A DNA stretch of 64,000 nt from Escherichia coli. Its GTDB lineage: Bacteria > Pseudomonadota > Gammaproteobacteria > Enterobacterales > Enterobacteriaceae. Numbering within the stretch: the first letter of the stretch is position 1; each line of letters begins with the position of its first letter. The stretch lies in the NCBI RefSeq assembly GCF_003018235.1, contig NZ_CP027437.1, one strand, 5' to 3'. Under the pieces are notes generated by a model. That model was given only the letters and a program-made list of their open reading frames with translations, had not been told where the DNA came from and searched no databases. Positions 10,252 to 36,281 of this stretch are shown here, in pieces. The translations under genes and the position numbers were made by a program.

Positions 10252-11295
10252 TTATCCACGTAGTGTAGCCGCAAAATCCAGCATACGATTGAGCGGCACC
10301 AGCGCCCTCTCTCGCAGCCTTTCATCAACATGAACCTCGTGATTGCTTCCTTCCTGTTCTAATGCCTCTGCGATGGCCTGAAGGCCATTCATGGCCATCC
10401 ACGGACAATGCGCGCAGCTGCGGCAGGTTGCACCCTCACCTGCGGTTGGTGCTTCCAGTAACTCTTTATCTGGCACCGCCTGCTGCATTTTGTAGAAAAT
10501 ACCCCGATCGGTTGCCACAATAAGCCTCTGATGTGGCAATGTTTTCGCAGCAGCGATCAGTTGACTGGTGGAACCGACCGCATCCGCCATCTCTACAATA
10601 GCTTGTGGTGATTCTGGATGCACCAGTATGGCAGCATCCGGGTATTCTTCTTGCAAGCGGGTTAACGCCTGAGTCTTAAATTCATCATGCACAATGCAGG
10701 CACCCTGCCAGCATAAAATGTCTGCGCCCGTCTGTTTTTGCACGTAACGCCCCAGATGTTTGTCGGGTGCCCAGATGATTTTTTCACCCAAACTATCCAG
10801 ATGATCAATAAGTTCGACGGCAATGCTTGAAGTTACCACCCAATCTGCCCGCGCTTTTACCGCAGCAGAAGTGTTGGCGTAGACGACGACAGTATGATCG
10901 GGATGGGCATCGCAAAATGCGTTAAATTCTTCAACAGGGCAGCCGAGATCCAGTGAACATTCAGCCTGAAGTGTCGGCATCAGAATTGTTTTTTCCGGAC
11001 TGAGAATTTTGGCGGTTTCTCCCATAAATCTCACCCCAGCGACTAACAACGTAGAAGCGGGATGCTTTGCACCGAAGCGCGCCATTTCCAGAGAATCAGA
11101 AATACAGCCACCGGTTTCTTCTGCCAGTTGTTGAATTTCGGGATCGGTATAGTAATGGGCAACCATCACCGCATTACGTTCTTTTAGCAGACGTTTTATC
11201 TTCTCGCGGTAATACGCTTTTTCATCAATGCTTAACGGCGTCGGCTTCGGGGGGAAAGGATAAATCGCCGTGTCTGGATCAAACATCACGCTCAT
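10252..11295 (-). CDS. nadA: quinolinate synthase A
   Basis: 347 aa; conserved Cys residues for 4Fe-4S cluster. Confidence 0.95.
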
Positions 11296-11618: not shown

Positions 11619-11697
11619 CGCCGCGAGCGGCTCCGTTGTTTCGCTGCGCTCAATTCGAACCTGCTGCAGGTTCGAATCTTTGAGTATCGCAGATAGC

Positions 11698-11724
11698 AAA
11701 AAAGCGCCTTTAGGGCGCTTTTTT
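11698..11724 (-). terminator. intrinsic terminator at 3' end of Lys/Val tRNA operon
   Basis: GCGCC/GGCGC hairpin flanked by A-run and T-run; a second near-identical hairpin at about 11544–11567. Confidence 0.65.
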
Positions 11725-11728
11725 ACAT

Positions 11729-11804
11729 TGGTGGGTCGTGCAGGATTCGAACCTGCGACCAATTGATTAAAAGTCAACTGCTCTACCAACTGAGCTAACG
11801 ACCC
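11729..11804 (-). tRNA. tRNA-Lys (anticodon UUU), distal tandem copy
   Basis: 76-nt exact reverse complement of E. coli tRNA-Lys, ending CCA. Confidence 0.92.
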
Positions 11805-11837
11805 CTTGCGGGATTATGCTGCTTTAATCATTCAGGA

Positions 11838-11913
11838 TGGTGGGTCGTGCAGGATTCGAACCTGCGACCAATTGATTAAAAGTCAACTGCTCTACCAACT
11901 GAGCTAACGACCC
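11838..11913 (-). tRNA. lysQ: tRNA-Lys (UUU)
   Basis: Exact tRNA-Lys sequence; part of perfect 109-bp tandem unit. Confidence 0.9.
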
Positions 11914-11946
11914 CTTGCGGGATTATGCTGCTTTAATCATTCAGGA

Positions 11947-12022
11947 TGGTGGGTCGTGCAGGATTCGAACCTGCGACCAATTGATTAAAAGTCAACTGCT
12001 CTACCAACTGAGCTAACGACCC
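11947..12022 (-). tRNA. lysZ: tRNA-Lys (UUU)
   Basis: Exact tRNA-Lys sequence. Confidence 0.9.
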
Positions 12023-12070
12023 ATACGGGTGTTACCTGAAAGATTTCTACTCGGAACCAATCTTTAAAAT

Positions 12071-12141
12071 TGGTGGGTCGTGCAGGATGACTCGCTTCGC
12101 TCGCCCTTCGGGCCGTTGCTGGCGCAACGTTATCCTTCACG
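12071..12141 (-). repeat. tRNA-Lys 3'-end-derived fragment repeat, copy B
   Basis: Shares tRNA 3' end plus about 55 nt with copies A and C. Confidence 0.6.
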
Positions 12142-12168
12142 CTTAACATCTGAGTTTGATGTTAAAAT

Positions 12169-12244
12169 TGGTGGGTCGTGCAGGATTCGAACCTGCGACC
12201 AATTGATTAAAAGTCAACTGCTCTACCAACTGAGCTAACGACCC
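12169..12244 (-). tRNA. lysY: tRNA-Lys (UUU)
   Basis: Exact tRNA-Lys sequence. Confidence 0.9.
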
Positions 12245-12247
12245 GAG

Positions 12248-12323
12248 TGGTGGGTGATGACGGGATCGAACCGCCGACCCCCTCCTTGTAAGGGAGGTGC
12301 TCTCCCAGCTGAGCTAATCACCC
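12248..12323 (-). tRNA. valZ: tRNA-Val (UAC)
   Basis: Reverse complement of GGGTGATTAGCTCAGCTGGGAGAGCACCTCCCTTACAAGGAGGGGGTCGGCGGTTCGATCCCGTCATCACCCACCA. Confidence 0.92.
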
Positions 12324-12374
12324 GATACTGCGCTGGATACTACAAACTACTTCCACCGAACCCACCGTAATTAG

Positions 12375-12450
12375 TGGTGGGTCGTGCAGGATTCGAACCT
12401 GCGACCAATTGATTAAAAGTCAACTGCTCTACCAACTGAGCTAACGACCC
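12375..12450 (-). tRNA. lysW: tRNA-Lys (UUU)
   Basis: Exact tRNA-Lys sequence. Confidence 0.9.
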
Positions 12451-12452
12451 GG

Positions 12453-12528
12453 TGGTGGGTGATGACGGGATCGAACCGCCGACCCCCTCCTTGTAAGGGA
12501 GGTGCTCTCCCAGCTGAGCTAATCACCC
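12453..12528 (-). tRNA. valT: tRNA-Val (UAC)
   Basis: Exact tRNA-Val sequence. Confidence 0.92.
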
Positions 12529-12563
12529 GATACTACGCTGGATACTACAACTAACTATGTTAG

Positions 12564-12636
12564 TGGTGGGTCGTGCAGGATGACTCGACTTCGTCTCGCC
12601 CTTCGGACCGTTGCTGACGCAACGTTATCCTTCACG
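12564..12636 (-). repeat. tRNA-Lys 3'-end-derived fragment repeat, copy C
   Basis: As copies A/B with a few substitutions. Confidence 0.6.
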
Positions 12637-12663
12637 TTTTACTACCGCTTCCACCTTAGCGAT

Positions 12664-12739
12664 TGGTGGGTCGTGCAGGATTCGAACCTGCGACCAATTG
12701 ATTAAAAGTCAACTGCTCTACCAACTGAGCTAACGACCC
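12664..12739 (-). tRNA. lysT: tRNA-Lys (UUU), promoter-proximal
   Basis: Exact tRNA-Lys sequence; first gene of array. Confidence 0.92.
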
Positions 12740-12903
12740 ACTTTTTCGTTGCTTTCGGTTTGTTTGATATCCCGTGGCAACGGCGGCATATATTACTGAT
12801 TTCAGACTTGAGCGCAACAAAAATTTCGATGTAGATCACTCAACTGCTTATGATTCGCACGACACGACCAGAAATAATGCGACTTCTGGTCGTGTGTTAT
12901 GCA

Positions 12904-21835: not shown

Positions 21836-22172
21836 CATGACTCCTTGCTCATCGCATGAAGACTCCGAGAGTGAACCCCGTTAGAAAGGGTCACACGCAT
21901 GCCCCAATACAAAATTATTTGCTCGCCTCTATCGTTGCCATTTCATCAAAAGAGGAAAAGACAATGATAAAAAAGTTACAAATATGTTAATGAATAAACC
22001 AAATTGATCCCGTAATTATATTACGCCGCAAAATCCTTACAATAAACAGGTTTTTATTGAGCAAATTTGCATTTTTCGACAGTGATCAATTTATAGCGAA
22101 ATTGTCACGATCTCACCAATTTGATCTACGACAATTTATCGTGTTTTGCAGATTTTTTTCAAGAATTAAAAA

Positions 22173-22186
22173 TTGATTTATATCAA
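22173..22186. promoter_or_regulatory. FNR box in cydA upstream regulatory region
   Basis: TTGATTTATATCAA fits TTGAT-N4-ATCAA consensus about 340 bp upstream of cydA ATG; weaker TTGATctacGACAA at 22119–22132. Confidence 0.6.
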
Positions 22187-22640
22187 AACCAACCAAATAT
22201 GTTAATTATGTATAAACCATAGATCATTGGTGATTTTATTGTTAATTTATTGTGAAATATTTATGCAACACAATTATTACAATGAAAAGGTATAGATAAA
22301 AAACCAGTGTTTTATTTAACAGAACCGCCCTATCCACTTTTTATAATACCAATTGATTAGATTAGCCAATTTGTTGCTATTTTACATAACATATTTTTAT
22401 CAAAGTTAATTGATTGTTGCCTTTATGAGCACCGGCCGTAAGCCCGTTATGTTATTGTTTCATTAGTAATAATCACTTAAATGTATCGATGAAACAGGTA
22501 TGACTTAGCGGGAGTGATTGTTTCTGAGTGAACAGAGACCACTTTCGCCTGATAAATGAAAAATGAGCGATTTTTGCAAGTTAGTTTTTCTATAGCCGAG
22601 TACGCTCAGCGCCTCGCTTGATTACAATGAGGTTGCTGCT

Positions 22641-23585
22641 ATGAGTCCTGATAATATCAGTTCTGCTGTCAATCGCTTCTCAGGTTGGCCATCTAATGAT
22701 CCTCTAAAAACAGATAAAGAATCAATGACATCACCCATGACTGTGCAGGTAATAAAGATGATTGCCGCCATCCTTGATCCACATCGGATAGTCGTTGGAA
22801 TCGATACACTTTATACAACGCAGCGCGAAACATTTACCTCAGAGAGTCAACAGCTCATTGAATCAGCATTGCAAACACTTCATGTGATGAATTTAAATAA
22901 CCTGGAAACAAATCTCGATGAGGAAGGTCACTATCTGGCTTTTGGATATAACGTTGACACTCCTGACAGAATAACCGTTTCTGCTTATAATGAAAAAAAG
23001 CCTGGCTGCTATGGTCAATGTCTTTTAATACAGGATGACGAAACAGACTTATTTAACCTGATAAAAGTTAAAATTTTTGAAGCCAGGCATAATTATGTCG
23101 CTCAATTGATGAGCGATCCGGAATTTATGTTCAAATTTAGTTATAGCGCTCAACAAAATAGATTAGAACCTCATCTTCTGGTTCCCACTTATTTCCCTCT
23201 AAAAACAAACGAACCGGTTACGCAAGAGGATGTACTGTTACTTTATCGTTTCTTTAAAATGGATGGTGATTTTAATATATTAACATCAGATGAATACATG
23301 AGTATCATGACACCTCTGATGAAGTGTGAGCGCAGCATCCACGACCACAACAGGTATGTGACGGGCAAAGATACCCTTCTTCTGGACTATCCTCCTTCTG
23401 GTAACCAGATATATTTCCATATTTTTCCTGACGAATCAGCAACACTAGTCCTTTATTTTTCAAACAATGACATTGAATGTTTCGTCTTTGAAAGAGATAT
23501 TCCGAGCCAGTATCGCTTTTTCAAAATGTTTACCAATCTGGCACTGGTTATTGATCAGTTAACCGATGCCAATCAAATACTTTAA
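22641..23585 (+). CDS. hypothetical protein (314 aa), AT-rich, no recognisable motif
   Basis: Long ORF with low GC (about 35–39% by eye) relative to flanks; acidic; no similarity I can recall. Confidence 0.6.
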   Translation: MSPDNISSAVNRFSGWPSNDPLKTDKESMTSPMTVQVIKMIAAILDPHRIVVGIDTLYTTQRETFTSESQQLIESALQTLHVMNLNNLETNLDEEGHYLAFGYNVDTPDRITVSAYNEKKPGCYGQCLLIQDDETDLFNLIKVKIFEARHNYVAQLMSDPEFMFKFSYSAQQNRLEPHLLVPTYFPLKTNEPVTQEDVLLLYRFFKMDGDFNILTSDEYMSIMTPLMKCERSIHDHNRYVTGKDTLLLDYPPSGNQIYFHIFPDESATLVLYFSNNDIECFVFERDIPSQYRFFKMFTNLALVIDQLTDANQIL

Positions 23586-23665
23586 TTTTTATATATTCCC
23601 TGTGGCAAATATTGCCAAACAATGCCCGGGGATTAATTTTTATTACTCACGGAAAGATTTAAATA

Positions 23666-24088
23666 ATGATCCCATCTCAAATCTCTTTCAACACCCTTCC
23701 TGTCAATGCAACATACGCTTCAGAGACAACAGTTGACACACAAAAATTCTCTGACATCCTCTACTCAGCGGGGTGTTCCCTAAAGGATCTGGCTTATCTG
23801 AGCAGATGTCTGGCATCAATACATCCGACTATCGCCAAAAACATTTATGAAACAGAAAATCTCAGCGATCAAAAATTACTGCATATTGATTGCCGTAGTA
23901 CAAATGAAATCAAGATAAATATCTTTTTTGGTCAACAACGAGAAGGATTAATTGAAATTAATTCTGACACTGTCATTTTTCCGATATTGTCTTCATTAAT
24001 TGACTCCGCCATTTCTAAATTTCAACACCAAATCCCCGTTAACGGTTCAGTAAATCCTGACCTATTGTATGAGGATTATACTGATTAA
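23666..24088 (+). CDS. hypothetical protein (140 aa), AT-rich, acidic C-terminus
   Basis: ORF immediately downstream of the 314-aa ORF in same orientation and composition. Confidence 0.5.
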   Translation: MIPSQISFNTLPVNATYASETTVDTQKFSDILYSAGCSLKDLAYLSRCLASIHPTIAKNIYETENLSDQKLLHIDCRSTNEIKINIFFGQQREGLIEINSDTVIFPILSSLIDSAISKFQHQIPVNGSVNPDLLYEDYTD

Positions 24089-24634
24089 ATCCACCCAGTC
24101 GCGAAAATGGCCTGCGTTATTGCCAGACGTAATAAAACTTTTGATTAACGTTACTCGTACTGGTAGCACCTTCATGTACTTTTCTTTTTTACGAAAAATC
24201 AAAAGAGCTAACAAAGGTCATAATTCGCATGAATCATTAATTATTTGTTATTTTCAACATTATTTTTACATTAAGCAGAGATGAATTGCAGTGAAATTCG
24301 ACTTAACTTTTATGAAATGCATTTACTCATGGCTAAAGCCACGTCACAAAAATGCAAATTAGAAGTTGATCACAATTATCTCAATACATCAAATCAAGTT
24401 AATTTTAAAAATTTAACATTCATGACATTAGTTGACATAACACACTGAATTAAAATGAGAATTTGAAAACACACTTTAAACAATCATTTCCCGAAAGACA
24501 TTTTGAAAATAGATCAATTGCAACATTACGGTCAGATAAAGACACTCCTGTGATATTAAACCTGTGCCGTTATGAGCGGCCATAAATACGACGTGTGTAA
24601 CTTATTTTACTCTCTGTCTTACAAAGGATTACCC

Positions 24635-25084
24635 ATGAAGAAAGCAACACTTGTGATTGGCGTTATTGGCGCGGACTGCCATGCAGTAGGCAATAAAGTT
24701 CTGGACCGCGTTTTTAGCAACCATGACTTCAGAGTTATTAATCTGGGCGTAATGGTCAGCCAGGACGAATATATTGATGCTGCCATTGAAACTGGTGCTG
24801 ACGCGATTGTCGTCTCCTCTATCTATGGGCATGGCGATATCGATTGTCTGGGCATGCGCGAACGCTGCATCGAGCGTGGGCTGGGTAACATCCTGCTCTA
24901 TGTGGGCGGTAACCTGGTGGTCGGAAAACATGACTTCGCTGACGTGGAAACCAAGTTCAAAGAGATGGGATTTGATCGCGTCTTTTCCCCAAGTCATGAC
25001 TTAGAAGATGTTTGTCAGCTGATGGCCCACGATATCAACCAACGTCATAACGTTGATACTCGCATTCTTGAAGAGGCAATCTGA
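24635..25084 (+). CDS. glmS: glutamate mutase sigma (B12-binding) subunit
   Basis: 149 aa from [21 protein letters not shown]: canonical DxHxxG cobalamin-binding motif and strong similarity to clostridial MutS/GlmS; RBS AAAGGA. Confidence 0.88.
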
Positions 25085-26472
25085 TGCAAATCGTCTCTGT
25101 CGATATTGGTTCGACGTGGACCAAAGCAGCCCTCTTCACCCGGGAGGGGGACGCGTTAACGTTGGTTAACCACGTTCTGACCCCAACCACCACCCATCAT
25201 CTGGCGAAGGGGTTTTTCTCCAGCCTGGACCAGGTGTTAAACGTAGATGATGCCCTCCCCCTGTTAAACAGTGGTGAGGTTGCATTGAAGTATTCCTCCT
25301 CTGCCAAAGGTGGGCTGGCGGTTGCCGCAATGGGATTGGTGCCTTCTATCACCCTGGAAACCGCGAAAGTAACCGCTCACTCTGCGGGTGCTAAAATTGC
25401 GCAATATTACGCCTACAAGCTGAACCGCCGTGATATCCAGGCACTGGAAGAAACGCAGCCCGATATTCTCTTATTCACCGGCGGCACCGATGGCGGAGAA
25501 GAAAGCTACGGACTGAATAACGCCCGTGTGTTGGCAGAATCCAAACTCGACTGCGCCATTATTTATGCCGGAAACCGGGATATTCAGGACGAGGTGCAGG
25601 AGATCCTCGGGCATAAAGACCTGACCATCGTCGACAACATTCTGCCCGATCTTGACCATCCGAACCCTTTAGCCGCACGCCAGGCTATCTGCGACATATT
25701 CCTTAAACGCATCGTTAAAGGGAAAGGGATGGATGTCGTTGTTGATAAAACAGGCGAAGAACCAATGCCGACACCATGGACGGTCTTTGAACTGGTTAAG
25801 GCAATCAGTAACGTCGATCACAGCTGGAAAGAGTTCATGCTGATCGACATGGGCGGCGCAACCACCGATGTCTATTCCGCCTGTGCCAACACGCTCTCGC
25901 CCGACACTGTTTTACATGGCGTACCGGAACCCTTCGTGAAACGGACGGTGGAAGGCGATCTGGGAATGCGCGTCTCGGCAATGGTGGTTGGTGAAAGTGC
26001 GAAAGAGTTAGTCAATGTGAATTTTGCTCAGCAACCCGCACAGCTGGACGCTTTTTATCATTACCTCCGTCATCTAGTCGCTCATCCCGACTACTTACCC
26101 GCGAATGCAGAAGAAAAATATTTCGATACCATCCTGGCCGGACTGTGTGTGGGTTATGCCACCGAAAGACATGCGGGCACCAAAAAAGAGGTCTGCACCT
26201 GCGTCGGCAATGTCGATTTACAGATGGGACGTGACCTGACAACCGTGCGTAAAGTCGTGGGTTCCGGCGGATGGCTCTCGCGTGCCAGTCAGTTCGATAT
26301 GCATCACTGGTTGAAATACCGCGAGTTAAACGACGACGGTAAACGCATTCTCTTACCGACCGAATTTGAATATTACCGCGATTCCCGGGGGCTATTACCA
26401 CTGCTGGCAAACGTCGCCAGAGTCGATCCACTGGCCGCCGCGCGCACCAGTATTCAATGCTTAACCCTATAA
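25084..26472 (+). CDS. glmL: glutamate mutase accessory protein GlmL/MutL (actin/Hsp70-fold ATPase-like, putative reactivase)
   Basis: 462 aa, translationally coupled (ATG overlaps glmS stop); sits between S and E subunit genes as in Clostridium. Confidence 0.75.
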   Translation: MQIVSVDIGSTWTKAALFTREGDALTLVNHVLTPTTTHHLAKGFFSSLDQVLNVDDALPLLNSGEVALKYSSSAKGGLAVAAMGLVPSITLETAKVTAHSAGAKIAQYYAYKLNRRDIQALEETQPDILLFTGGTDGGEESYGLNNARVLAESKLDCAIIYAGNRDIQDEVQEILGHKDLTIVDNILPDLDHPNPLAARQAICDIFLKRIVKGKGMDVVVDKTGEEPMPTPWTVFELVKAISNVDHSWKEFMLIDMGGATTDVYSACANTLSPDTVLHGVPEPFVKRTVEGDLGMRVSAMVVGESAKELVNVNFAQQPAQLDAFYHYLRHLVAHPDYLPANAEEKYFDTILAGLCVGYATERHAGTKKEVCTCVGNVDLQMGRDLTTVRKVVGSGGWLSRASQFDMHHWLKYRELNDDGKRILLPTEFEYYRDSRGLLPLLANVARVDPLAAARTSIQCLTL

Positions 26473-26490
26473 CAATTAAGGCTGCAATCA

Positions 26491-27936
26491 ATGGAACTTC
26501 GAAATAAGAAATTAACCCATAACGAATTCATGACCGAGCGGCAACAGGTATTGAAAACCTGGGAAACCGGCAAGGATGTTGAAAACTTTGAAGATGGCGT
26601 TAAATACCAACAAACCATTCCTGAGCATAAACGCTTCTCTCTTGCCCTGCTGAAAGCAGACAAGGAAGGTAAAACTCTTAGCCAACCGCGCGCAGGCGTG
26701 GCGCTGATGGACGAACACATCGAACTACTGAAAACACTACAAGAAGAGTGCGATCTGCTGCCGAGCACCATCGATGCATATACCCGTCTGAATCGGTACG
26801 AAGAAGCTGCTGTAGGGATTAAAAAATCCATCGAAGCCGGAACCTCTAAACTGAACGGTTTACCGGTCGTTAACCACGGCGTCGCAGCTTGCCGTCGCCT
26901 CACCGAAACTCTGCAAAAACCGCTACAGATCCGCCACGGCACGCCAGATGCGCGTCTGCTGGCTGAAATCTCGATGGCCAGCGGCTTTACCAGTTATGAA
27001 GGCGGCGGCATTTCCTACAATATTCCGTATGCCAAGCGCGTAACGCTGGAAAAATCGATCCGCGACTGGCAGTACTGCGACCGTTTAATGGGGATGTATG
27101 AAGAACACGGGATCCGCATCAACCGCGAACCATTTGGCCCACTAACGGGTACGCTGATCCCGCCGTTTATCTCGCACTCTATCGCGATAATCGAAGGATT
27201 ACTGGCGCTGGAACAGGGTGTGAAATCTATCACCGTTGGTTATGGACAGGTCGGCAGCCTGACGCAGGATGTCGCGGCGATCCAGTCTCTGCGTGAACTT
27301 GCACACGAATACTTTCAGAACTATGGCTATACCGACTATGAATTAAGTACCGTATTTCACCAGTGGATGGGCGGCTTTCCGGAAGACGAATCGAAAGCGT
27401 TCGCCATTATCTCCTGGGGTGCAGCCGTCGCGGGGATGTCTGGTGCCACCAAAGTCATCACCAAAAGCCCTCACGAAGCCTGGGGAATCCCGACTGCCGC
27501 TGCCAACATTCAGGGGCTGAAAGCCTCCCGCCAGATGCTCAACATGGTCAATGAGCAGAAATTCCCGCCGTGCCCTGCGGTTGAACTGGAAATTGAACTG
27601 ATTAAGAGCGAGGTTCGCGCGGTACTGAATAAAGTGTTCGAACTGGGTAATGGTGATATTGCGCGCGGTACGGTGCTGGCATTTGAAGCGGGCGTACTGG
27701 ATGTGCCATTTGCACCAGCCGCGTGTAACGCGGGCAAAATTCTTCCGGTCCGTGACAACACCGGCGCGATACGCGTACTGGAAGCCGGAGCCGTTCCATT
27801 GCCAAAAGATATTCTCGACCTCCACCACGATTACGTTGCTGAACGCGCACGCTTTGAAGGACGCCAACCGACATTCCAGATGGTTGTAGATGACATCAAT
27901 GCTGTATCCCACAGTAAATTAATAGGAAGACCATAA
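26491..27936 (+). CDS. glmE: glutamate mutase epsilon (catalytic) subunit, methylaspartate mutase E chain
   Basis: 481 aa; N-terminus MELRNKKLTHNEF...QVLKTWETGKDV closely resembles clostridial GlmE/MutE. Confidence 0.88.
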   Translation: MELRNKKLTHNEFMTERQQVLKTWETGKDVENFEDGVKYQQTIPEHKRFSLALLKADKEGKTLSQPRAGVALMDEHIELLKTLQEECDLLPSTIDAYTRLNRYEEAAVGIKKSIEAGTSKLNGLPVVNHGVAACRRLTETLQKPLQIRHGTPDARLLAEISMASGFTSYEGGGISYNIPYAKRVTLEKSIRDWQYCDRLMGMYEEHGIRINREPFGPLTGTLIPPFISHSIAIIEGLLALEQGVKSITVGYGQVGSLTQDVAAIQSLRELAHEYFQNYGYTDYELSTVFHQWMGGFPEDESKAFAIISWGAAVAGMSGATKVITKSPHEAWGIPTAAANIQGLKASRQMLNMVNEQKFPPCPAVELEIELIKSEVRAVLNKVFELGNGDIARGTVLAFEAGVLDVPFAPAACNAGKILPVRDNTGAIRVLEAGAVPLPKDILDLHHDYVAERARFEGRQPTFQMVVDDINAVSHSKLIGRP

Positions 27937-29177
27937 TGAAAATAAAACAGGCCCTTTTTACCGCTGGCTACTCCTCATTCTATTTCGATGACCAGCAGGC
28001 GATAAAAAACGGAGCGGGTCACGACGGTTTTTTTTATACCGGGGAGCCAGTAACACAGGGGTTTAACGCCGTACGTCAGGCCGGGGAGTGCGTATCGGTA
28101 CAGTTGATTCTGGAAAACGGCGCGGTCGCCGTAGGTGACTGTGCTGCCGTACAGTATTCCGGGGCAGGTGGTCGCGATCCACTGTTCCTCGCGGAGCACT
28201 TTATTCCGTTCCTCAACGACCATATCAAGCCATTACTGGTAGGCCGCGATGTGGATACTTTCCTGCCGAATGCCCGTTTCTTCGACAAATTGCGTATTGA
28301 CGGCAACTTGCTGCATACCGCCGTGCGCTACGGATTATCACAGGCGCTGCTTGATGCTACCGCGCTGGCAACCGGCCGTCTGAAAACTGAAGTGGTCTGT
28401 GATGAATGGCAGTTGCCACGCGTGGCGGAATCCATTCCATTATTTGGTCAGAGCGGCGACGATCGATATATCGCCGTCGATAAGATGATCCTTAAGGGCA
28501 TCGACGTGCAGCCCCATGCACTGATTAATAACGTCGAAGAGAAACTGGGCTTTAAAGGTGAAAAACTGCGCGAATATGTCCGCTGGCTGTCGGATCGTAT
28601 TCTGAGCAAGCGCACCAGCGCACGCTACCACCCTACCCTGCACATCGATGTATACGGCACTATCGGTCTGATCTTCGATATGGATCCGCTTCGCTGTGCG
28701 CAATACATCGCCAGCCTGGAAAAAGAAGCGCAAGGCCTGCCGCTCTACATTGAAGGTCCGGTCGATGCCGGTAACAAGCCCGATCAAATTCGCCTGCTGA
28801 CCGCGATTACCAAAGAGCTGACGCGCCTCGGTTCCGGCGTGAAACTAGTGGCCGATGAATGGTGTAACACCTACCAGGATATTGTTGATTTCACCGATGC
28901 CGCCAGTTGCCACATGGTGCAAATCAAAACCCCGGATCTGGGCAGTATTCACAACATCGTCAATGCAGTTCTTTATTGCAACAGCCACAGCATGGAAGCG
29001 TACCAGGGCGGCACCTGCAATGAAACTGATGTCAGTGCCCGCACCTGTGTCCACGTCGCCCTTGCCGCTCGCCCCATGCGTATGCTGGTAAAACCAGGGA
29101 TGGGCTTTGACGAAGGCCTCGATATCGTCTTCAACGAAATGAATCGTACTATCGCGCTGTTGCAGGCTAAGGATTAA
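27936..29177 (+). CDS. mal: 3-methylaspartate ammonia-lyase (methylaspartase)
   Basis: 413 aa; enolase-superfamily motifs (FYFDDQ, AVQYSGAGGRDPLFLA) matching clostridial/Citrobacter MAL. Confidence 0.9.
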   Translation: MKIKQALFTAGYSSFYFDDQQAIKNGAGHDGFFYTGEPVTQGFNAVRQAGECVSVQLILENGAVAVGDCAAVQYSGAGGRDPLFLAEHFIPFLNDHIKPLLVGRDVDTFLPNARFFDKLRIDGNLLHTAVRYGLSQALLDATALATGRLKTEVVCDEWQLPRVAESIPLFGQSGDDRYIAVDKMILKGIDVQPHALINNVEEKLGFKGEKLREYVRWLSDRILSKRTSARYHPTLHIDVYGTIGLIFDMDPLRCAQYIASLEKEAQGLPLYIEGPVDAGNKPDQIRLLTAITKELTRLGSGVKLVADEWCNTYQDIVDFTDAASCHMVQIKTPDLGSIHNIVNAVLYCNSHSMEAYQGGTCNETDVSARTCVHVALAARPMRMLVKPGMGFDEGLDIVFNEMNRTIALLQAKD

Positions 29178-29180
29178 CAA

Positions 29181-30551
29181 ATGGCTCGTTCTTTTAAAGT
29201 CTTATCGCCAACGGCAATCCTCGGGTATGGATTCCCGGAGGAGAGCTTCCGCAAAGCGATGGCAGAATCGCCCGATCTGATCGCCGTTGATGCTGGCTCT
29301 TCCGATCCTGGCCCCCACTACCTCGGGGCGGGCAAACCGTTTACCGCTCGCGCAGGGGTCAAGCGCGATCTGCGCTATATGATCACCGCAGGCGTGCAAA
29401 ATAATATACCGGTGGTGATCGGAACGGCCGGCGGTTCTGGTGCCGCTCCACATCTGGAGTGGTGCCGAGAAATAATTCATGAGATTGCCCGGGAAGAGCA
29501 CCTCTCGTTCTCGATGGCGCTGATCCCGGCAGACGTTGACAAAGCTATCGTCCACCAGGCGCTGGATAACGGCAAAATCACGGCGCTGGATTTTGTCCCG
29601 CCGTTAACCCACGACGCGATTGACGAAAGTACGTATATCGTCGCGCAAATGGGCATCGAACCCTTCCAGCGGGCGCTGAAAGAAGGCGCGCAAGTGGTGC
29701 TGGGCGGGCGCGCTTACGACCCGGCCTGCTTTGCTGCGCTTCCGATCATGCAAGGCTTTGATGAAGGTCTGGCGCTGCATTGTGGGAAAATCCTTGAATG
29801 CGCGGCAATCGCCGCAACGCCCGGCTCAGGCTCTGACTGTGCGATGGGCATCATTGATGACAACGGCTTTACGCTGAAGACATTTAATCCGAAGCGTAAA
29901 TTTACCGAAACGTCAGCGGCTGCACACACACTGTATGAGAAATCCGATCCCTACTTCCTGCCTGGACCTGGCGGCGTGTTGAACCTGAAAGGCTGCACAT
30001 TTAAAGCGGTCAATGACAGCGAAGTGTACGTCAGCGGTTCTAAGCATGAAGAAACGCCGTATTCCCTGAAACTGGAAGGTGCGCGACGGGTGGGCTTCCG
30101 CTGTCTGACCATCGCCGGAACGCGCGACCCGATCATGATCGCCGGGATCGATAAAATCATCGATGAAGTCAAAACCAGCGTTTCGCGTAACCTGTCGCTC
30201 GACGATGACAGCATTCACATCAATTTCCACCTGTACGGCAAAAACGGGGTGATGGGCGACCATGAACCGATGCAAACTGCCGGGCATGAGCTGGGGATTG
30301 TCCTAGATGTAGTTGCGCCGACCCAGGAGATTGCCAACAGCGTTTGCTCGCTGGTGCGCTCTACTATGCTGCACTACGGCTATGAAAACCGCATCGCTAC
30401 CGCAGGCAACCTGGCGTTCCCGTTCTCCCCTTCTGATATCCAGGGCGGGCCAGTATACGAATTTTCCATATATCACCTGATTGAAGCCAACGACGCTCTG
30501 CGTTTTGATTTCCATATTGAACAGGTGACGCCAGAAGGAGTTCAGGCATGA
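29181..30551 (+). CDS. conserved protein of unknown function, AtuA-like N-terminal part (DUF1446-type)
   Basis: 456 aa soluble protein; domain assignment from memory, not verified. Confidence 0.55.
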   Translation: MARSFKVLSPTAILGYGFPEESFRKAMAESPDLIAVDAGSSDPGPHYLGAGKPFTARAGVKRDLRYMITAGVQNNIPVVIGTAGGSGAAPHLEWCREIIHEIAREEHLSFSMALIPADVDKAIVHQALDNGKITALDFVPPLTHDAIDESTYIVAQMGIEPFQRALKEGAQVVLGGRAYDPACFAALPIMQGFDEGLALHCGKILECAAIAATPGSGSDCAMGIIDDNGFTLKTFNPKRKFTETSAAAHTLYEKSDPYFLPGPGGVLNLKGCTFKAVNDSEVYVSGSKHEETPYSLKLEGARRVGFRCLTIAGTRDPIMIAGIDKIIDEVKTSVSRNLSLDDDSIHINFHLYGKNGVMGDHEPMQTAGHELGIVLDVVAPTQEIANSVCSLVRSTMLHYGYENRIATAGNLAFPFSPSDIQGGPVYEFSIYHLIEANDALRFDFHIEQVTPEGVQA

Positions 30552-30865
30552 AACAGTCAATTGTCTCACTGGCGCAAGTCATTCGTTCGAAAAATGCCGG
30601 ACCTTACGAACTGGTTTTAGATATTTTATTTAAAACGAAAGAAAACTATGAGCGAGTTAAATCATCAGGGCAATTAACCCCAGAACTGATCGCGCGCTTA
30701 TATCATGTTGAACCTGACTTTATTCATCGTATTGTCTGGTTTGATCCTTCTAACGCAGTAAAAATCGTCATGCCACGAGATATTATCTCCGGGAATGTAG
30801 GTGACAATGATGTCTATGGCGCACAGCAACATGCACCTTTATTAAATATGAGTTTCGATTTGTAA
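30548..30865 (+). CDS. small conserved protein, AtuA-like C-terminal part (DUF4387-type)
   Basis: 105 aa; start overlaps upstream stop (ATGA), suggesting a two-subunit pair. Confidence 0.5.
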   Translation: MKQSIVSLAQVIRSKNAGPYELVLDILFKTKENYERVKSSGQLTPELIARLYHVEPDFIHRIVWFDPSNAVKIVMPRDIISGNVGDNDVYGAQQHAPLLNMSFDL

Positions 30866-30948
30866 AAATCCGAACACTTTTAGCCAACTGACATCCCGTC
30901 ACTTATTGCAGTTCAACACTTCAGCTATTTGTAAGGTTGTAATAGCAG

Positions 30949-30980
30949 GTAGATGCCTGAATCTCTATTCGGGCATCTAC
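30949..30980 (+). other. stable hairpin between AtuA-like pair and transporter gene
   Basis: Perfect 9-bp stem GTAGATGCC/GGCATCTAC followed by T-rich stretch. Confidence 0.45.
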
Positions 30981-31025
30981 TTCTCCTGATTCTGATTTAT
31001 CGCGGTGCACCTGATGGAGGAAAAA

Positions 31026-32306
31026 ATGAAGAAAATAAGTTTAACCACGATGATTCTTTTGGCGCTCGTACTTGGAATGATTATCGGCGTAGTGCTCAAT
31101 AACACTGCTTCACCGGAAACCGCAAAACTCTATGCGCAAGAAATATCGATATTCACGACGATTTTCTTACGACTGATAAAAATGATTATCGCTCCGTTAG
31201 TGGTCTCTACCCTGGTGGTAGGTATAGCTAAAATGGGAGATGCCAAAGCCCTTGGTCGTATTTTTTCTAAAACACTCTTTTTATTTATTTGCGCCTCATT
31301 GCTGTCAATTGCCTTAGGCTTGATAACAGTAAATTTCTTCATGCCAGGCACAGGAATTAATTTTGTTGCACACGGAGCCGAAACCACCGGAGTGGTCGCA
31401 TCAGAACCCTTTACGCTAAAAGTATTTATTTCGCATGCTTTCCCCACCAGCATTGTCGATGCCATGGCGCACAATGAAATTTTGCAAATCGTAGTGTTCT
31501 CAATTTTCCTCGGCTGTAGCCTGACGGCGATTGGCGAGAAAGGCAGCGCCATCGTTCACGCCTTAGATTCGCTGGCACATGCCATGTTAAAGCTCACTGG
31601 CTACGTCATGCTCTTCGCTCCCCTGACCGTATTCGCTGCTATTTCAGCATTGATTGCTGAACGAGGACTGGCAGTTATGGTGAGCGCCGGGATCTTTATG
31701 GGTGAATTTTATTTCACCATGTTATTACTTTGGGTGCTGCTTATCGGTCTGGCCATCGTTTATGTCGGCCCCTGCATCAGACGCCTGACCCGCGCCCTTT
31801 CGGAACCCGCTCTGCTGGCATTTACCACATCCAGTTCTGAAGCGGCTTTTCCGGGAACGCTTGAAAAACTGGAGCAATTTGGCGTTTCCCCCAAAATTGC
31901 CAGCTTTGTCTTACCCATTGGCTACTCATTTAATCTCGTTGGATCAATGGCCTACTGCTCCTTCGCCACAGTTTTCATCGCCCAGGCCTGCAATATCCAT
32001 TTATCCATCGGTGAGCAAATCACCATGCTGTTGATCCTGATGTTGACCTCGAAAGGAATGGCTGGCGTACCACGCGCCTCAATGGTGGTTATCGCCGCCA
32101 CGCTCAACCAGTTCAATATTCCGGAAGCGGGGCTGATCTTGCTGATGGGCGTTGATCCGTTCCTTGATATGGGGCGTTCCGCGACAAACGTCATGAGCAA
32201 CGCAATGGGCGCTGCGATGGTGAGTCGGTGGGAAGGCGAACATTTCGGCGAGGGTTGTCGGGGTAAAGCATTAAAACCCAATGAATCGAACGTTGCTCTG
32301 CCCTGA
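31026..32306 (+). CDS. dicarboxylate/amino acid:cation symporter (DAACS family, GltP/DctA-like)
   Basis: About 426 aa polytopic protein with GltP/DctA-type motifs; RBS GGAGG before ATG at 31026. Confidence 0.8.
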   Translation: MKKISLTTMILLALVLGMIIGVVLNNTASPETAKLYAQEISIFTTIFLRLIKMIIAPLVVSTLVVGIAKMGDAKALGRIFSKTLFLFICASLLSIALGLITVNFFMPGTGINFVAHGAETTGVVASEPFTLKVFISHAFPTSIVDAMAHNEILQIVVFSIFLGCSLTAIGEKGSAIVHALDSLAHAMLKLTGYVMLFAPLTVFAAISALIAERGLAVMVSAGIFMGEFYFTMLLLWVLLIGLAIVYVGPCIRRLTRALSEPALLAFTTSSSEAAFPGTLEKLEQFGVSPKIASFVLPIGYSFNLVGSMAYCSFATVFIAQACNIHLSIGEQITMLLILMLTSKGMAGVPRASMVVIAATLNQFNIPEAGLILLMGVDPFLDMGRSATNVMSNAMGAAMVSRWEGEHFGEGCRGKALKPNESNVALP

Positions 32307-32413
32307 GGGGGATCTTAAGCAATCAGAAGCCAATGACTACGCATTTTTATAAGCCGGATCATGAAGTTAGACGGCAATTAAGTAACACTAACGTTTAAGG
32401 TGAAAAGTGAAAT

Positions 32414-34065
32414 ATGTCCAAACCATTTATCTGGCAAGAACCGTTTCTACAAAATAAAGACGGTACAGAATATACATTAATTAGCGATCAACATATTACA
32501 GTAACGGAATTAGACGGCGAAGAAGTGATAAAAATCGCTCCTGAAGCATTAACGCTGCTTGCCCGGCAGGCATTTTATGAAGCCTCTTTTTTCTTACGTT
32601 CCGCTCATTTGCAACAGGTCGCCAGCATTCTTAACGATCCGCAGGCCAGTAGTAATGATAAATACGTTGCGTTGCAGTTATTACGTAATGCTGAAGTCTC
32701 AGCAAAAGGGGTATTACCCAACTGTCAGGATACCGGCACCGCAACTATTGTTGCCAGTAAAGGGCAACAGATATGGACGGGAGGTAACGACGCTGAAGCC
32801 TTAAGCAAAGGCATTTACAGTACTTTCCAGGAAAATAATCTGCGCTTTTCACAAAATGCGCCGCTGGATATGTATACCGAAGTCAATACGCAAACCAATC
32901 TCCCGGCGCAGATTGATATCAGCGCTGTCGCTGGTAATGAGTACCATTTTCTCTGTGTTAATAAAGGGGGCGGCTCCGCCAATAAAGCCGCACTTTATCA
33001 GGAAACCAAATCCTTATTGCAACCAGAAAAACTGACCGCATTTTTAATCGAAAAAATGAAATCGCTGGGCACCGCTGCCTGCCCGCCTTACCACATCGCC
33101 TTTGTCGTCGGAGGGCTTTCAGCCGATCAAACCTTAAAAGTTGCCAAGCTGGCCTCTACGAAATATTACGACAATTTGCCCACCAGCGGAAACGAGCAGG
33201 GACAAGCATTCCGTGATATTGAGCTGGAAAAAGTGTTGCTCGAGGTCAGTCAGCAATTTGGTATTGGTGCGCAATTTGGGGGTAAATATTTCGCTCATGA
33301 TATTCGCGTCATTCGTCTGCCGCGTCACGGTGGCTCTTGCCCGATAGCTATGGCGCTCTCCTGTTCTGCCGATCGCAATATCAAAGCAAAAATTAACAAG
33401 CACGGTATCTGGCTGGAAAAACTCGAACACAATCCGGGGCAATATATTCCAGCCTCACTGCGGGAAGAAAATCACGCGCAACATGTACAACTGGATCTAA
33501 ACCGTCCGTTGCGTGACGTGATGCAGGATCTCGCCAGATTACCGGTAGGCACCCGCGTGTCGTTAAGTGGTCCCATCGTAGTGGCACGCGATATCGCCAC
33601 GCCAAAATAAAAGCGCGGCTGGATAACGCCGAACCGATGCCGGATTACCTGAAGCATCATATTGTCTATTACGCTGGCTCGGCGAAAACACCGGAGAACA
33701 TGGCCTGCGGTTCACTGGGTCCAACCACGGGCGGTCGAATGGACGGTTATGTCGATACCTTCCAGGCGGCTGGCGGCAGTCTGGTGATGTTATCGAAAGG
33801 TAACCGCAGCCAGCAGGTCACCGATGCCTGTCACAAACATGGTGGCTTCAATCTGGGTAGTATTGGCGGTGCAGCTGCGTTACTGGCGCAAGAATATGTC
33901 AAAAGTCTGCGTTGCCTGGAATACCCGGAGCTGGGTATGGAAGCGGTGTGGATGATGGAAGTGGAAAATCTGCCCGCATTCATCCTGGTAGATGATAAAG
34001 GCAATAATTTCTTTAGTCAGTTTGAGCAGCAACACCGCTGCGCCAGTTGCCCTGCGGGACATTAA
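32414..34065 (+). pseudogene. fumD: class I fumarate hydratase family (FumD-type mesaconase), interrupted by apparent 1-bp deletion near 33595
   Basis: ORFs 32414..33610 and 33637..34065 are N- and C-terminal parts of one FumA-like protein; C-part frame reads ...[20 protein letters not shown] continuously upstream, offset one base from ...[11 protein letters not shown]. Confidence 0.75.
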
Positions 34066-34074
34066 GGAAAATGA

Positions 34075-34677
34075 ATGGAAGCGCGAATTTCAACTGAACG
34101 GCATGTGCAGCGCCAGCAGAAATTGAAGGAACAGGTCGATACGCGCATCGCGGCGGCGATAGAGAAAAAAGGGATTTTGATTGTTTTCACCGGCAATGGC
34201 AAAGGGAAATCCACTGCCGCGTTTGGTACTGTGACGCGCGCGGTGGGTCATGGCAAAACGGTGGGGGTTGCGCAGTACATCAAGGGGCAATGGGACAACG
34301 GCGAATACAACCTTCTCCAGCCGCTGGGGGTTGAGTTTCATATTATGGGAACCGGTTTTACCTGGGAGACACAGAACCGGCAAGCGGATATCGACGCGGC
34401 GAAAGAGGTCTGGTCGGAAAGCAAACGGATGCTGGCTGACAAGCGTTACGACTTAGTGGTGCTTGATGAGCTGACCTATATGCTGGCTTACCATTATCTG
34501 GATACCGAAGAAGTGATCGCTTCTCTGCAAAACCGCCCGGCACAACAAAGTGTCATTGTCACCGGACGCGGTTGCCACAGTCAGATATTAAAAATGGCGG
34601 ATACGGTCAGCGAAATCCGCCCCGTCAAACATGCTTTTGATAACGGCATTCAGGCCCAGCCGGGTATCGACTGGTAA
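34075..34677 (+). CDS. cob(I)alamin/cob(I)yrinic acid a,c-diamide adenosyltransferase (BtuR/CobA paralog)
   Basis: 200 aa; P-loop GNGKGKSTAAFG and strong similarity to E. coli BtuR. Confidence 0.85.
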   Translation: MEARISTERHVQRQQKLKEQVDTRIAAAIEKKGILIVFTGNGKGKSTAAFGTVTRAVGHGKTVGVAQYIKGQWDNGEYNLLQPLGVEFHIMGTGFTWETQNRQADIDAAKEVWSESKRMLADKRYDLVVLDELTYMLAYHYLDTEEVIASLQNRPAQQSVIVTGRGCHSQILKMADTVSEIRPVKHAFDNGIQAQPGIDW

Positions 34678-34680
34678 TAA

Positions 34681-34712
34681 CTGCGCCTGGCATCCCGCCA
34701 GGCGCAGGTTTT
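34681..34712. terminator. bidirectional terminator between adenosyltransferase gene and LysR gene
   Basis: Hairpin CTGCGCCTGG(catcccg)CCAGGCGCAG followed by TTTT. Confidence 0.6.
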
Positions 34713-35616
34713 ACATCTCCTGCGGTACAACCGATTTCGCCAGCAACCATTCACGAAATTGCTGCAAGTGCGGTGAGTCAGACTTCTCTTCCTGCCACGT
34801 CATAATAAAACGATTACCGGTACGAATAGGCACATCACAGGGGATCACCATATCGCCACTATCCAAATCATGTTGAATAGCGAAACGTGGTAACAGCGCC
34901 ACGCCGAGATTAGAGCGCACGGCGGCAATCAGCATTGAAAGCAAATCGAAACGTGGTCCGTTGTTGACCAGCGGACTGCTAACGCCAGATAAGGCAAACC
35001 ACTCTTCCCAGCCAGTAATACGGGTACTTTGATGCAGAAGTGGTAACTCTGTAAGCAGTTCTGCCACTGACAGTTTTTGATCGGACATTGCAAGCAAACT
35101 GCCGCTGCATACCGGCAAAATCTCCTCATCAAAGAGATATTCTACTTCCGCCCAGGGCGCGCAAAAATTTTCGCGCATAATGACAGCATCGTACTCCCGA
35201 TTAAGAAAATCGCCGTTATTAGCTAAAGAGTGAATATTAACAATAATATCGGGATGTAACTTTGTGAATTCATGTAAATTTGGGATTAACCAGTGGGTAC
35301 TAAACGTAGGATTCACGGCAAGTTCAATAACCTGAACCGTAGGCTGCCAGGTCATAATGGTATTGGTATCGCGTTCCAGCTTATTTAATGTTTCTTTTAC
35401 TATCCCCAGGTAATACTTCCCTGCATCATTAAGAAAAATACGTTTTTTAGAGTGTGAAAATAACGGAGTATGTAAAAATTCCTCCAGCGCACTCACTTGT
35501 CTGAATACTGCACTTTGGGTCAACGCTAACTCCTCTGCCGCTTTGGTATAACTTTCATGACGTGCGACGACCTCAAAAGTCACCAGCAGCTCCGTTTTAG
35601 GTATTTTTCCTCGCAT
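34711..35616 (-). CDS. LysR-family transcriptional regulator
   Basis: 301 aa; N-terminal HTH (TKAAEELALTQSAVFRQVSALE) and LysR substrate-binding domain. Confidence 0.85.
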   Translation of the reverse strand: MRGKIPKTELLVTFEVVARHESYTKAAEELALTQSAVFRQVSALEEFLHTPLFSHSKKRIFLNDAGKYYLGIVKETLNKLERDTNTIMTWQPTVQVIELAVNPTFSTHWLIPNLHEFTKLHPDIIVNIHSLANNGDFLNREYDAVIMRENFCAPWAEVEYLFDEEILPVCSGSLLAMSDQKLSVAELLTELPLLHQSTRITGWEEWFALSGVSSPLVNNGPRFDLLSMLIAAVRSNLGVALLPRFAIQHDLDSGDMVIPCDVPIRTGNRFIMTWQEEKSDSPHLQQFREWLLAKSVVPQEM

Positions 35617-36182
35617 AATGCCGTCCCTTAAAAATAGTTTAAACCATCAAAAATACATTACTTATTACGAAGTAATGGTAACCAAAGCAGCAATAAATAA
35701 TTTATAAGAATCATGATTGACATTTATAACCCAGTAAGCCTGGCGTGACAAATATCTTAATCAGATAATAATAATCCGAAAAGCACAGCGCCTTTCGAAT
35801 TATCCGGAATCACATTAAGTGAAAATTATTAAATTGATATCATTTATCATATCTGTGGATATTATGATAAACAATCAACAAAGATTTTATTTTTGATTTA
35901 TAGCATATCCCTCTAAGAATTTTTGCGATGCTGCAATATCCGGGGTAAAGACCCGATCCTGGCTGACAAATGGCACGACTTGACGATAAGCGGTGAACAT
36001 CGCTTTTGTTGATTTACTTAACGCTACGGTCAAACGCTGGGAAGCCAGTGCATCAGGTAACGATTCGAAATTCGCCGTCGTTCTTATTCGTGGCTTGCGG
36101 TCGGTTGCGGCAATCCACAGTGGCTGTGGTCATGCAGTCAAGCCAGCGGTCAGATTTCGACCGTGGTTAACATTTAAGGCAT

Positions 36183-36281
36183 AAAAAAGGCCATCATACG
36201 ATGGCCAACCATGTCGAAACCGACAGCCCTTCGCCATTCCTGTAGAGGGAAGCGGCGAGGGCTATTTCTTATTACAGATAT
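36183..36281 (-). ncRNA. sdhX: probable 3'-UTR-derived sRNA SdhX (RybD) with intrinsic terminator
   Basis: Region directly after sucD stop ends in hairpin GGCCATCGTATGATGGCC plus U-run on minus strand; identity by position, not sequence match. Confidence 0.45.

Follow-up and report, generated by a model that had tools for sequence, protein, structure and literature searches.

What kind of genes are two AT-rich open reading frames (ORFs) that lie between cydA and a glutamate-fermentation cluster of Escherichia coli and resemble no known protein? The question is posed by positions 22641–24088 of a 64,000-nucleotide stretch of E. coli DNA (contig NZ_CP027437.1 of assembly GCF_003018235.1), referred to here at its full length as the window. 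An earlier note, made from the letters of the window alone, had reported two co-oriented ORFs of 314 and 140 amino acids; their coordinates, lengths and + orientation were confirmed exactly, and they are called ORF1 and ORF2 below. The favoured answer, held to be probable rather than assured, is that they constitute a genuine two-gene operon of orphan genes restricted to Escherichia, located at the cydA-proximal, AT-rich end of the island between sucD and cydA.

Coding capacity and taxonomic range of the pair

Comparison of alleles, together with simulation, shows that in E. coli each ORF codes for a protein and is subject to moderate purifying selection. At the local base composition, the probability of an open frame arising by chance is 2.8e-10 for 314 codons and 5.5e-5 for 140 codons, and the longest open run observed is 329 codons, compared with at most 162 in any of 1000 shuffled versions of the region. 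ORF1 alleles at 99, 90 and 65% identity each encode exactly 314 residues and are free of insertions and deletions (indels). The E. coli and E. albertii versions of ORF1 differ by 23% at the nucleotide level over 945 bp with zero indels. The ratio of nonsynonymous to synonymous change (omega), calculated by the method of Nei and Gojobori (NG86), is 0.34–0.46 for ORF1 and 0.17–0.31 for ORF2 among E. coli alleles; for ORF1 it is 0.39–0.41 between E. coli and E. albertii, and 0.22–0.32 inside E. albertii. Neutral evolution was simulated at the E. albertii level of divergence by placing the observed 215 substitutions randomly while keeping the observed spectrum. The frame was open in 0 of 5000 simulations, in which omega averaged 0.74 and never fell below 0.44. 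Additionally, a GAGG Shine-Dalgarno sequence is located at 22629–22632, 8 nt ahead of the ORF1 ATG.

The base composition of the pair differs from that of its surroundings. The GC content is 0.380 for ORF1 and 0.371 for ORF2, compared with 0.534 for cydAB, 0.522 for the genes from glmS to methylaspartate ammonia-lyase (MAL) and a window mean of 0.50, which bears out the earlier description of a GC content markedly below that of the cyd and glm genes. The codon usage of the pair is foreign, with a third-position GC content (GC3) of 0.35 (ORF1) and 0.34 (ORF2), 6.5% rare codons, and a codon adaptation index of 0.36–0.39, compared with 0.70–0.80 for the suc and cyd core genes. In an alignment of 22212–24634 with another E. 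coli allele (L004), the AT-rich segment, coding and non-coding DNA alike, was 3–4-fold more diverged than the flanking genes, with a synonymous divergence (pS) of 0.13–0.14 and a non-coding identity of 0.92–0.94, compared with a pS of 0.03–0.06 for the glm and cyd genes. Imported old alleles or a locally raised substitution rate could account for this difference.

No family could be assigned to either protein, in agreement with the earlier statement that no motif is recognisable. Searches of NCBIfam, PADLOC and PHROGs gave zero matches for either protein, PADLOC-DB v2 contained 0 families at E≤1 for both, and no match to either was present among the sequences in the Protein Data Bank. Pfam gave nothing below E=0.1 for any family member, and the best result of a Pfam scan of ORF2, which included CesT and related families, was no better than E=9. 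Weak Pfam matches to DNTTIP1_dimer, Intu_longin_2 and Arylesterase (E=0.14–0.46) were discarded, as they are absent in every other family member.

Larger collections gave a similarly narrow result. A profile hidden Markov model of ORF1 (HMMER) searched against 1.84 billion representative proteins yielded 14 matches, all of 131 residues or fewer, whose bit scores (source organisms were not checked) are consistent with fragments of ORF1 itself. For both proteins, every entry retrieved by word-seeded searches of 5.8 billion clusters belonged to Escherichia or Shigella. In a scan of GTDB with one genome per species, relatives were found only in E. albertii, Escherichia sp. MOD1-EC7003 and two contigs of metagenome-assembled genomes, binned as Collinsella and Citrobacter. 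The copies on these two contigs are 99–100% identical to the pair and are read as E. coli contamination. A tblastn search of 50,697 phage records gave no match, and the same search of 72,556 plasmid records gave only three matching records, which measure 0.7–4.9 Mb, are too large for plasmids and are probably mislabelled chromosomes. An origin from a mobile element was considered and rejected on the combined grounds of the phage result, the size of the matching plasmid-collection records and the lack of flanking repeats. With a range limited to one genus and the coding signals described above, the pair appears to represent genuine Escherichia-only orphan genes. The earlier note had named clear homology to a characterised family, or disruption in most genomes, as grounds for abandoning its description, and neither was found in E. 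coli.

Setting and age of the locus

Homology to K-12, as determined by blastn, stops at 22211 (373 bp upstream of cydA) and restarts at 36179, at the end of sdhX/sucD. The intervening 14-kb island (22212–36178) stands between cydA and sucD in place of mngR-mngA-mngB of K-12. The pair lies 430 bp inside the left edge, at the cydA-proximal end, so that its placement by the earlier note at an island edge proved accurate, and it is transcribed divergently from cydAB. The island continues with glmS (start at 24635 in the RefSeq annotation), glmL, glmE, methylaspartate ammonia-lyase, an AtuA-like gene, a DUF4387 gene and genes for an SDF transporter and a class I fumarase (FumD), and ends with cobO and the gene of a LysR regulator. 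The approximately 550 bp of AT-rich non-coding DNA that had been noticed ahead of glmS correspond to the ORF2-glmS spacer (Table 1), whose conservation across E. coli alleles and the cryptic clade is 92–96%. Since the trough in GC content begins in cydA regulatory DNA that is shared with K-12, low GC at this locus cannot be attributed to the island alone. Neither direct nor inverted repeats flank the pair, no mobility genes were found around it, and a 2.8-kb region around it is 100% identical to many complete genomes.

Table 1. Coordinates of the pair and of the adjoining non-coding segments in the window.
Feature	Positions	Strand	Remarks
ORF1 (ECs0767 of O157:H7 Sakai, ECs_0767)	22641–23585	+	314 aa; WP_001305591.1, annotated "hypothetical protein"
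ORF2 (ECs0766 of O157:H7 Sakai, ECs_0766)	23666–24088	+	140 aa; WP_000613113.1, annotated "hypothetical protein"
Core cydA upstream regulatory DNA	21839–22211		K-12 homology by blastn; GC 0.335; left flank of the island
Island-specific non-coding DNA 5' of ORF1	22212–22640	+	GC 0.33; presumed operon promoter and 5' leader
ORF1-ORF2 intergenic gap	23586–23665	+	80 bp; weak GGAAAG ribosome-binding site before ORF2
ORF2-glmS spacer	24089–24634		546 bp; GC 0.32; non-coding; presumably the glm operon promoter region

The pair was found in 1135 of 5426 complete E. coli genomes (21%), at a nucleotide identity of 90–100%, and the glm cluster is present in an equal number (1135). All but one of the 1139 matching places are chromosomal, with a median of one per genome and never more than two. 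O157:H7, O145:H28 and SMS-3-5 are among the carriers. In Shigella dysenteriae, the pair is present as fragments only.

The loci of close relatives share the order cydA-ORF1-ORF2-glm, which is common to E. coli, E. albertii (L014–L016) and cryptic-clade Escherichia (L013). Two types of locus exist in E. albertii. In type i (L014–L016), which has this order, ORF1 is intact with 314 residues; codon 36 of ORF2 is an in-frame TGA, and the acidic YEDYTD at the ORF2 C-terminus is missing. Type ii (L003 and L012) lacks glm and has the order cydA, ORF1, ORF2 remnant, a gene for an outer-membrane-like protein of 258 residues, and sucD; here ORF2 carries a frameshift and a deletion, and in the type strain, which is of this type, a single A added to a poly-A run shifts the frame of ORF1 as well. 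Overall, ORF2 is interrupted by a premature stop or a deletion in all five E. albertii loci examined, and ORF1 is intact in four of the five. The outer-membrane-like gene between the ORF2 remnant and sucD (L003 11786–12562; L012 11862–12206) gave no Pfam match, and its product is cut to 114 residues in the type strain. In Escherichia sp. MOD1-EC7003 (L013), enterobacterial repetitive intergenic consensus (ERIC) elements at 10387–10430 and 11128–11149 interrupt ORF1 and ORF2, and the downstream glm genes are unbroken.

Between E. coli and E. albertii, pS is 0.39–0.40 for the pair and 0.44–0.55 for glmL, glmE and MAL. Because the gene order is the same in these relatives and the synonymous divergence is similar, it follows that the pair has been at this locus for as long as the glm genes have. 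These comparisons show that the module and the island have descended together from before the split of E. coli and E. albertii, and that the module decays in some lineages. The earlier note had proposed a separate and more recent acquisition. The second part is contradicted by the order shared with E. albertii and the cryptic clade, by a pS close to that of the glm genes and by the 1135 genomes that carry each. The first part is plausible: a separate ultimate origin is suggested by the 15-point difference in GC content, by the lack of any relative outside Escherichia, and by the occurrence of glm clusters in other genera without a relative of ORF1 or ORF2. Such clusters are known from Klebsiella, Citrobacter, Enterobacter, Salmonella, Yersinia and Morganella (PMC4682846), and neither ORF appears in the list of Kronen and Berg (2015), who described the glutamate-fermentation cluster of O157:H7 (PMC4682846).

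Other features of the window and of related loci were noted in passing. In E. coli AR_0067, extra DNA that includes an RtcB-family gene is located between the LysR gene and sucD (L001 25837–26801, compared with window 35635–36281). Across the ORF1-ORF2 pair this genome is identical to the window. As the extra DNA is missing from the window and from O157 Sakai, the right end of the island is variable. The sucD-cydA interval is a hot spot of cargo swapping, in which mngRAB, the glm island and the outer-membrane-like gene take one another's place. Self-matches in blast at 11690–12745, between nadA and cpoB, correspond to seven tRNA genes (Lys, Val) and the RtT small RNA; these repeats, which are 100% identical over 76 nt, are those of the ordinary lysT-valT operon.

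Predicted properties of the proteins and of the upstream DNA

Both proteins are shown by these analyses to be soluble and acidic, with a predicted mixed alpha/beta structure. No hydrophobic segment compatible with a signal peptide or a membrane helix is present in ORF1 or ORF2, and no recognisable catalytic motif was found in either. The description of a large protein followed by a small acidic one holds for ORF2 (15.7 kDa), which has an isoelectric point (pI) of 4.65; ORF1 is acidic too, with a pI of 4.69. The predicted secondary structure consists of a helix, three or four strands and a further helix. AlphaFold2 models calculated from shallow alignments have a mean predicted local distance difference test (pLDDT) score of 43 for both proteins, and only residues ~190–290 of ORF1 exceed 60–80. 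At this low confidence (pLDDT 43), the elements of the ORF2 model are helices 25–34, 39–52 and 54–61, strands 70–77, 81–88 and 91–99, and helix 105–121, and Foldseek searches with the low-confidence models returned only self matches.

The first 25 residues are rich in Ser, Thr, Asn, Pro and Gln (fraction 0.48 in ORF1 and 0.52 in ORF2) and are predicted to be disordered. The same fraction in the 46 other long ORFs of the window has a mean of 0.24, a standard deviation of 0.09 and a maximum of 0.40, so that all are lower. Over the whole protein, the fractions are 0.31 and 0.34. Residues 26–116 of ORF2 are nearly invariant in E. coli, with variable N- and C-terminal tails. A subset of E. coli carries an ORF2 variant of 160 residues (P0011 and P0014, from clusters of 105 and 3 members), in which a frameshift near codon 126–128 (window ~24040–24088) swaps the acidic tail.

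Inspection by eye and a similar predicted secondary structure had suggested that ORF1 arose by tandem duplication of a domain similar to ORF2 and composed of a helix, three strands and a helix. This proposal was not supported by BLASTP (E=2.3), by hhalign (probability 1%, E=0.053) or by Smith-Waterman alignment against 2000 shuffles (z = 1.1, −0.6 and −0.2), and was set aside.

Two blocks upstream of ORF1 are conserved between E. coli and E. albertii, at 22339–22418 and in a leader of ~100 nt at 22539–22640. Sliding identity is 0.86–0.95 in the blocks and 0.47–0.75 between them, and the leader together with the first ~20 codons of ORF1 is 86–93% identical, compared with 77% for ORF1 as a whole. 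The conserved blocks are candidates for a promoter, an operator or a 5' leader. The + strand ahead of ORF1 lacks a strong sigma-70 consensus. Rfam gave no match upstream of ORF1 or in the ORF2-glmS spacer, and on the latter ground no B12 riboswitch is located in 24089–24634. Because no terminator is predicted in the gap between ORF1 and ORF2, co-transcription of the two genes is likely.

An RNA element in the ORF1 leader was also considered. RNAalifold predicted a hairpin in which the Shine-Dalgarno sequence and the AUG would be sequestered; it has 0 compensatory pairs and a single-sequence z of −0.36, and was rejected. The leader contains an upstream ORF of 21 codons (22556–22621; MKNERFLQVSFSIAEYAQRLA) that has no Shine-Dalgarno sequence and whose start codon is not conserved; its stop is kept as TGA or TAA. 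Farther upstream, in the core cydA region, lies a perfect FNR-type palindrome (TTGAT-TTAT-ATCAA, of the form TTGAT-N4-ATCAA) at 22173–22186. It is separated from the start of cydA by ~335–350 bp and from the island junction (22211/22212) by only ~30 bp.

Alternative explanations and biological significance

Beyond these results, a mode of action is inferred for the operon. The pair would be co-transcribed from a weak, regulated promoter with the conserved leader of ~100 nt. Xenogeneic silencing of AT-rich DNA by H-NS is well established, and the pair, like other E. coli DNA of 33–38% GC, would probably be silenced by H-NS under laboratory conditions. ORF1 would most likely be the primary functional unit, as a non-enzymatic binding or adaptor protein, and ORF2 would be a dispensable auxiliary rather than a neutraliser of ORF1. 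Since ORF2 has been inactivated by two independent routes in E. albertii, where ORF1 is still under purifying selection, ORF1 appears to be independent of ORF2.

Among known kinds of gene, the pair comes closest to the taxonomically restricted (ORFan) accessory genes found in AT-rich enterobacterial DNA, with which it shares low GC, poor codon adaptation, genus restriction, relaxed but real selection, lineage-specific decay and a position at an island edge. Such genes are typically H-NS targets, a property that composition suggests for the pair as well, and the source of its DNA could be foreign or de novo. The likeness to the methylaspartate cluster (glmS-glmL-glmE-mal-...-fumD-cobO-LysR) is one of position. 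The pair is physically in the same island, and ECs0766/ECs0767 are directly upstream of ECs0764 (glmS); however, its GC content is 15 points lower, the 546-bp spacer lies in between, and it has no counterpart beside the glm clusters of other genera, which places it outside that cluster.

Several points weigh against the favoured reading. For a functional gene the constraint is weak, with an omega about half the neutral expectation, and the neighbouring genes have an omega of ~0.006 (cydA) and 0.02–0.25 (glm genes). The overall nucleotide divergence of ORF1 equals that of the adjacent non-coding DNA. The searchable literature contained no paper naming ECs0766 or ECs0767, the neighbouring ECs or Z tags (for which the Z-numbers of EDL933 were guessed) or the protein accessions. 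Models of such low confidence establish that no fold is detectable, not that the proteins have no known fold, and both the silencing by H-NS and the adaptor role are suggested by composition and by the absence of motifs. ORFs that are spurious, open by chance in AT-rich non-coding DNA, would suit the lack of homologues, the poor AlphaFold confidence, the lack of expression evidence and the similarity of ORF1 divergence to that of the flanking non-coding DNA. That reading is effectively refuted by the chance-open probabilities (3e-10 and 5e-5) and by the simulations, of which 0 of 5000 remained open, and it is the least probable of all those considered here; moreover, omega is below that of every neutral simulation, and the 945 bp of ORF1 contain no indels.

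Among roles that such a pair of proteins might have, a link to the neighbouring genes, as accessory or regulatory factors for glutamate fermentation by glm or for the divergent cydAB, is unlikely. In its favour, the pair and glm occur in equal numbers of genomes (1135 each). The pair always adjoins the cydA regulatory region, with conserved non-coding blocks between, and ORF1 is frameshifted in one of the two genomes of the E. albertii lineage that lacks glm. However, glm clusters work in other genera without a homologue of ORF1 or ORF2 (PMC4682846), glm has survived in the cryptic clade, where neither ORF is intact, and a LysR regulator is already encoded within the island. Every E. coli has cydAB, compared with 21% of genomes for the pair, in which no DNA-binding motif was detected. 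Just as unlikely is a new Escherichia-specific family, founded by ORF1 with or without ORF2, with a dedicated activity beyond the reach of current methods. Most concretely, this would be a hitherto unrecognised substrate of a type III secretion system (T3SS) encoded by E. coli type III secretion system 2 (ETT2) or the locus of enterocyte effacement (LEE), recognised through its polar N-terminus; alternatively, it would be a condition-specific modulator linked to the cydAB promoter through the unusually conserved leader at 22539–22640. In its specific form, as substrates of the ETT2 or LEE T3SS or as an effector (ORF1) with a small acidic chaperone (ORF2), the secretion proposal is judged unlikely. 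Polar N-termini, low GC and genus restriction do resemble those of T3SS substrates, a signal that is compositional and weak: the N-termini, predicted to be disordered, are more polar than those of all 46 other long ORFs of the window, yet this bias partly reflects whole-protein composition (0.31 and 0.34). Effector islets are scattered, low in GC and genus-restricted, similar to the 37–38% GC of the pair, and hosts of the pair include the LEE- or ETT2-bearing O157:H7, O145:H28 and E. albertii; however, many lineages with ETT2 remnants, such as K-12, lack it. The larger protein with an acidic neighbour of ~15 kDa, AT-rich DNA and polar N-termini recalls the class I chaperone/effector pair CesT-Tir. 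The class I chaperone fold consists of a helix, three strands, a helix, two strands and a helix. The predicted elements of ORF2, in what is a poor model, would be ordered differently and would lack the half comprising strand 4, strand 5 and helix 3. Moreover, there is no sequence or profile match to CesT, to any other chaperone or to an effector family in Pfam, ORF2 is a pseudogene in E. albertii, where ORF1 persists, and no secretion system lies near the locus.

That the pair is a new two-gene system of anti-phage defence, placed in a hot spot of integration, is considered quite unlikely. AT-rich gene pairs for unknown proteins are common among defence systems, and the sucD-cydA interval accepts alternative cargo (mngRAB, the glm island, the outer-membrane-like gene and the RtcB-containing insertion). 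Against this, the pair differs from known anti-phage systems in lacking any PADLOC model match, in having metabolic neighbours (cydAB and glm) and in occupying a fixed locus; it contains no motifs of the NTPase, nuclease, TIR or SIR2 type and has no homologue in phages or plasmids. Defence systems spread patchily across taxa, and the pair is found at one locus in one genus and looks vertically inherited. Still less probable is a toxin-antitoxin or toxin-immunity function, in which ORF2 would neutralise a toxic ORF1. Like type II toxin-antitoxin systems, the pair is a two-gene, co-oriented cassette in accessory DNA, in this case a large and a small acidic gene that are adjacent in an AT-rich setting. 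It differs in having no toxin, nuclease or antitoxin domain in Pfam, NCBIfam or PADLOC, in its gene sizes, and in a gap of 80 bp, which is atypical compared with overlapping or tightly coupled ORFs. The site is chromosomal, fixed, single-copy and vertically inherited, with no occurrence on a phage or a genuine plasmid, and the putative neutraliser is dispensable: ORF2 has been lost in E. albertii by nonsense mutation or deletion, and ORF1 there is intact and constrained. The effector/chaperone, toxin/immunity and defence roles, all three of which the earlier note had offered as possible fits, are thus disfavoured by the lack of a PADLOC match, the metabolic neighbours, the fixed vertical locus and the loss of ORF2. 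The note had also proposed that the setting be checked for a defence island or a secretion system; the neighbours are metabolic, and no secretion system is near.

The orphan-operon reading places the pair among the many lineage-restricted unknowns in the accessory genome of E. coli, with no sign of an unusual mechanism. The protein families themselves are without known relatives, and nothing indicates a new kind of system. What the locus provides is a selected, well-delimited orphan operon with no relative among ~15 billion proteins, which makes it a reasonable test case for the origin of orphan genes and for alignment-free structure prediction. About one fifth of complete E. coli genomes carry the pair, and O157:H7, O145:H28 and many clinical lineages are among them. 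Should the pair prove to be secreted, or to regulate bd oxidase or glutamate fermentation, it would be relevant to gut colonisation by the lineages that carry it.

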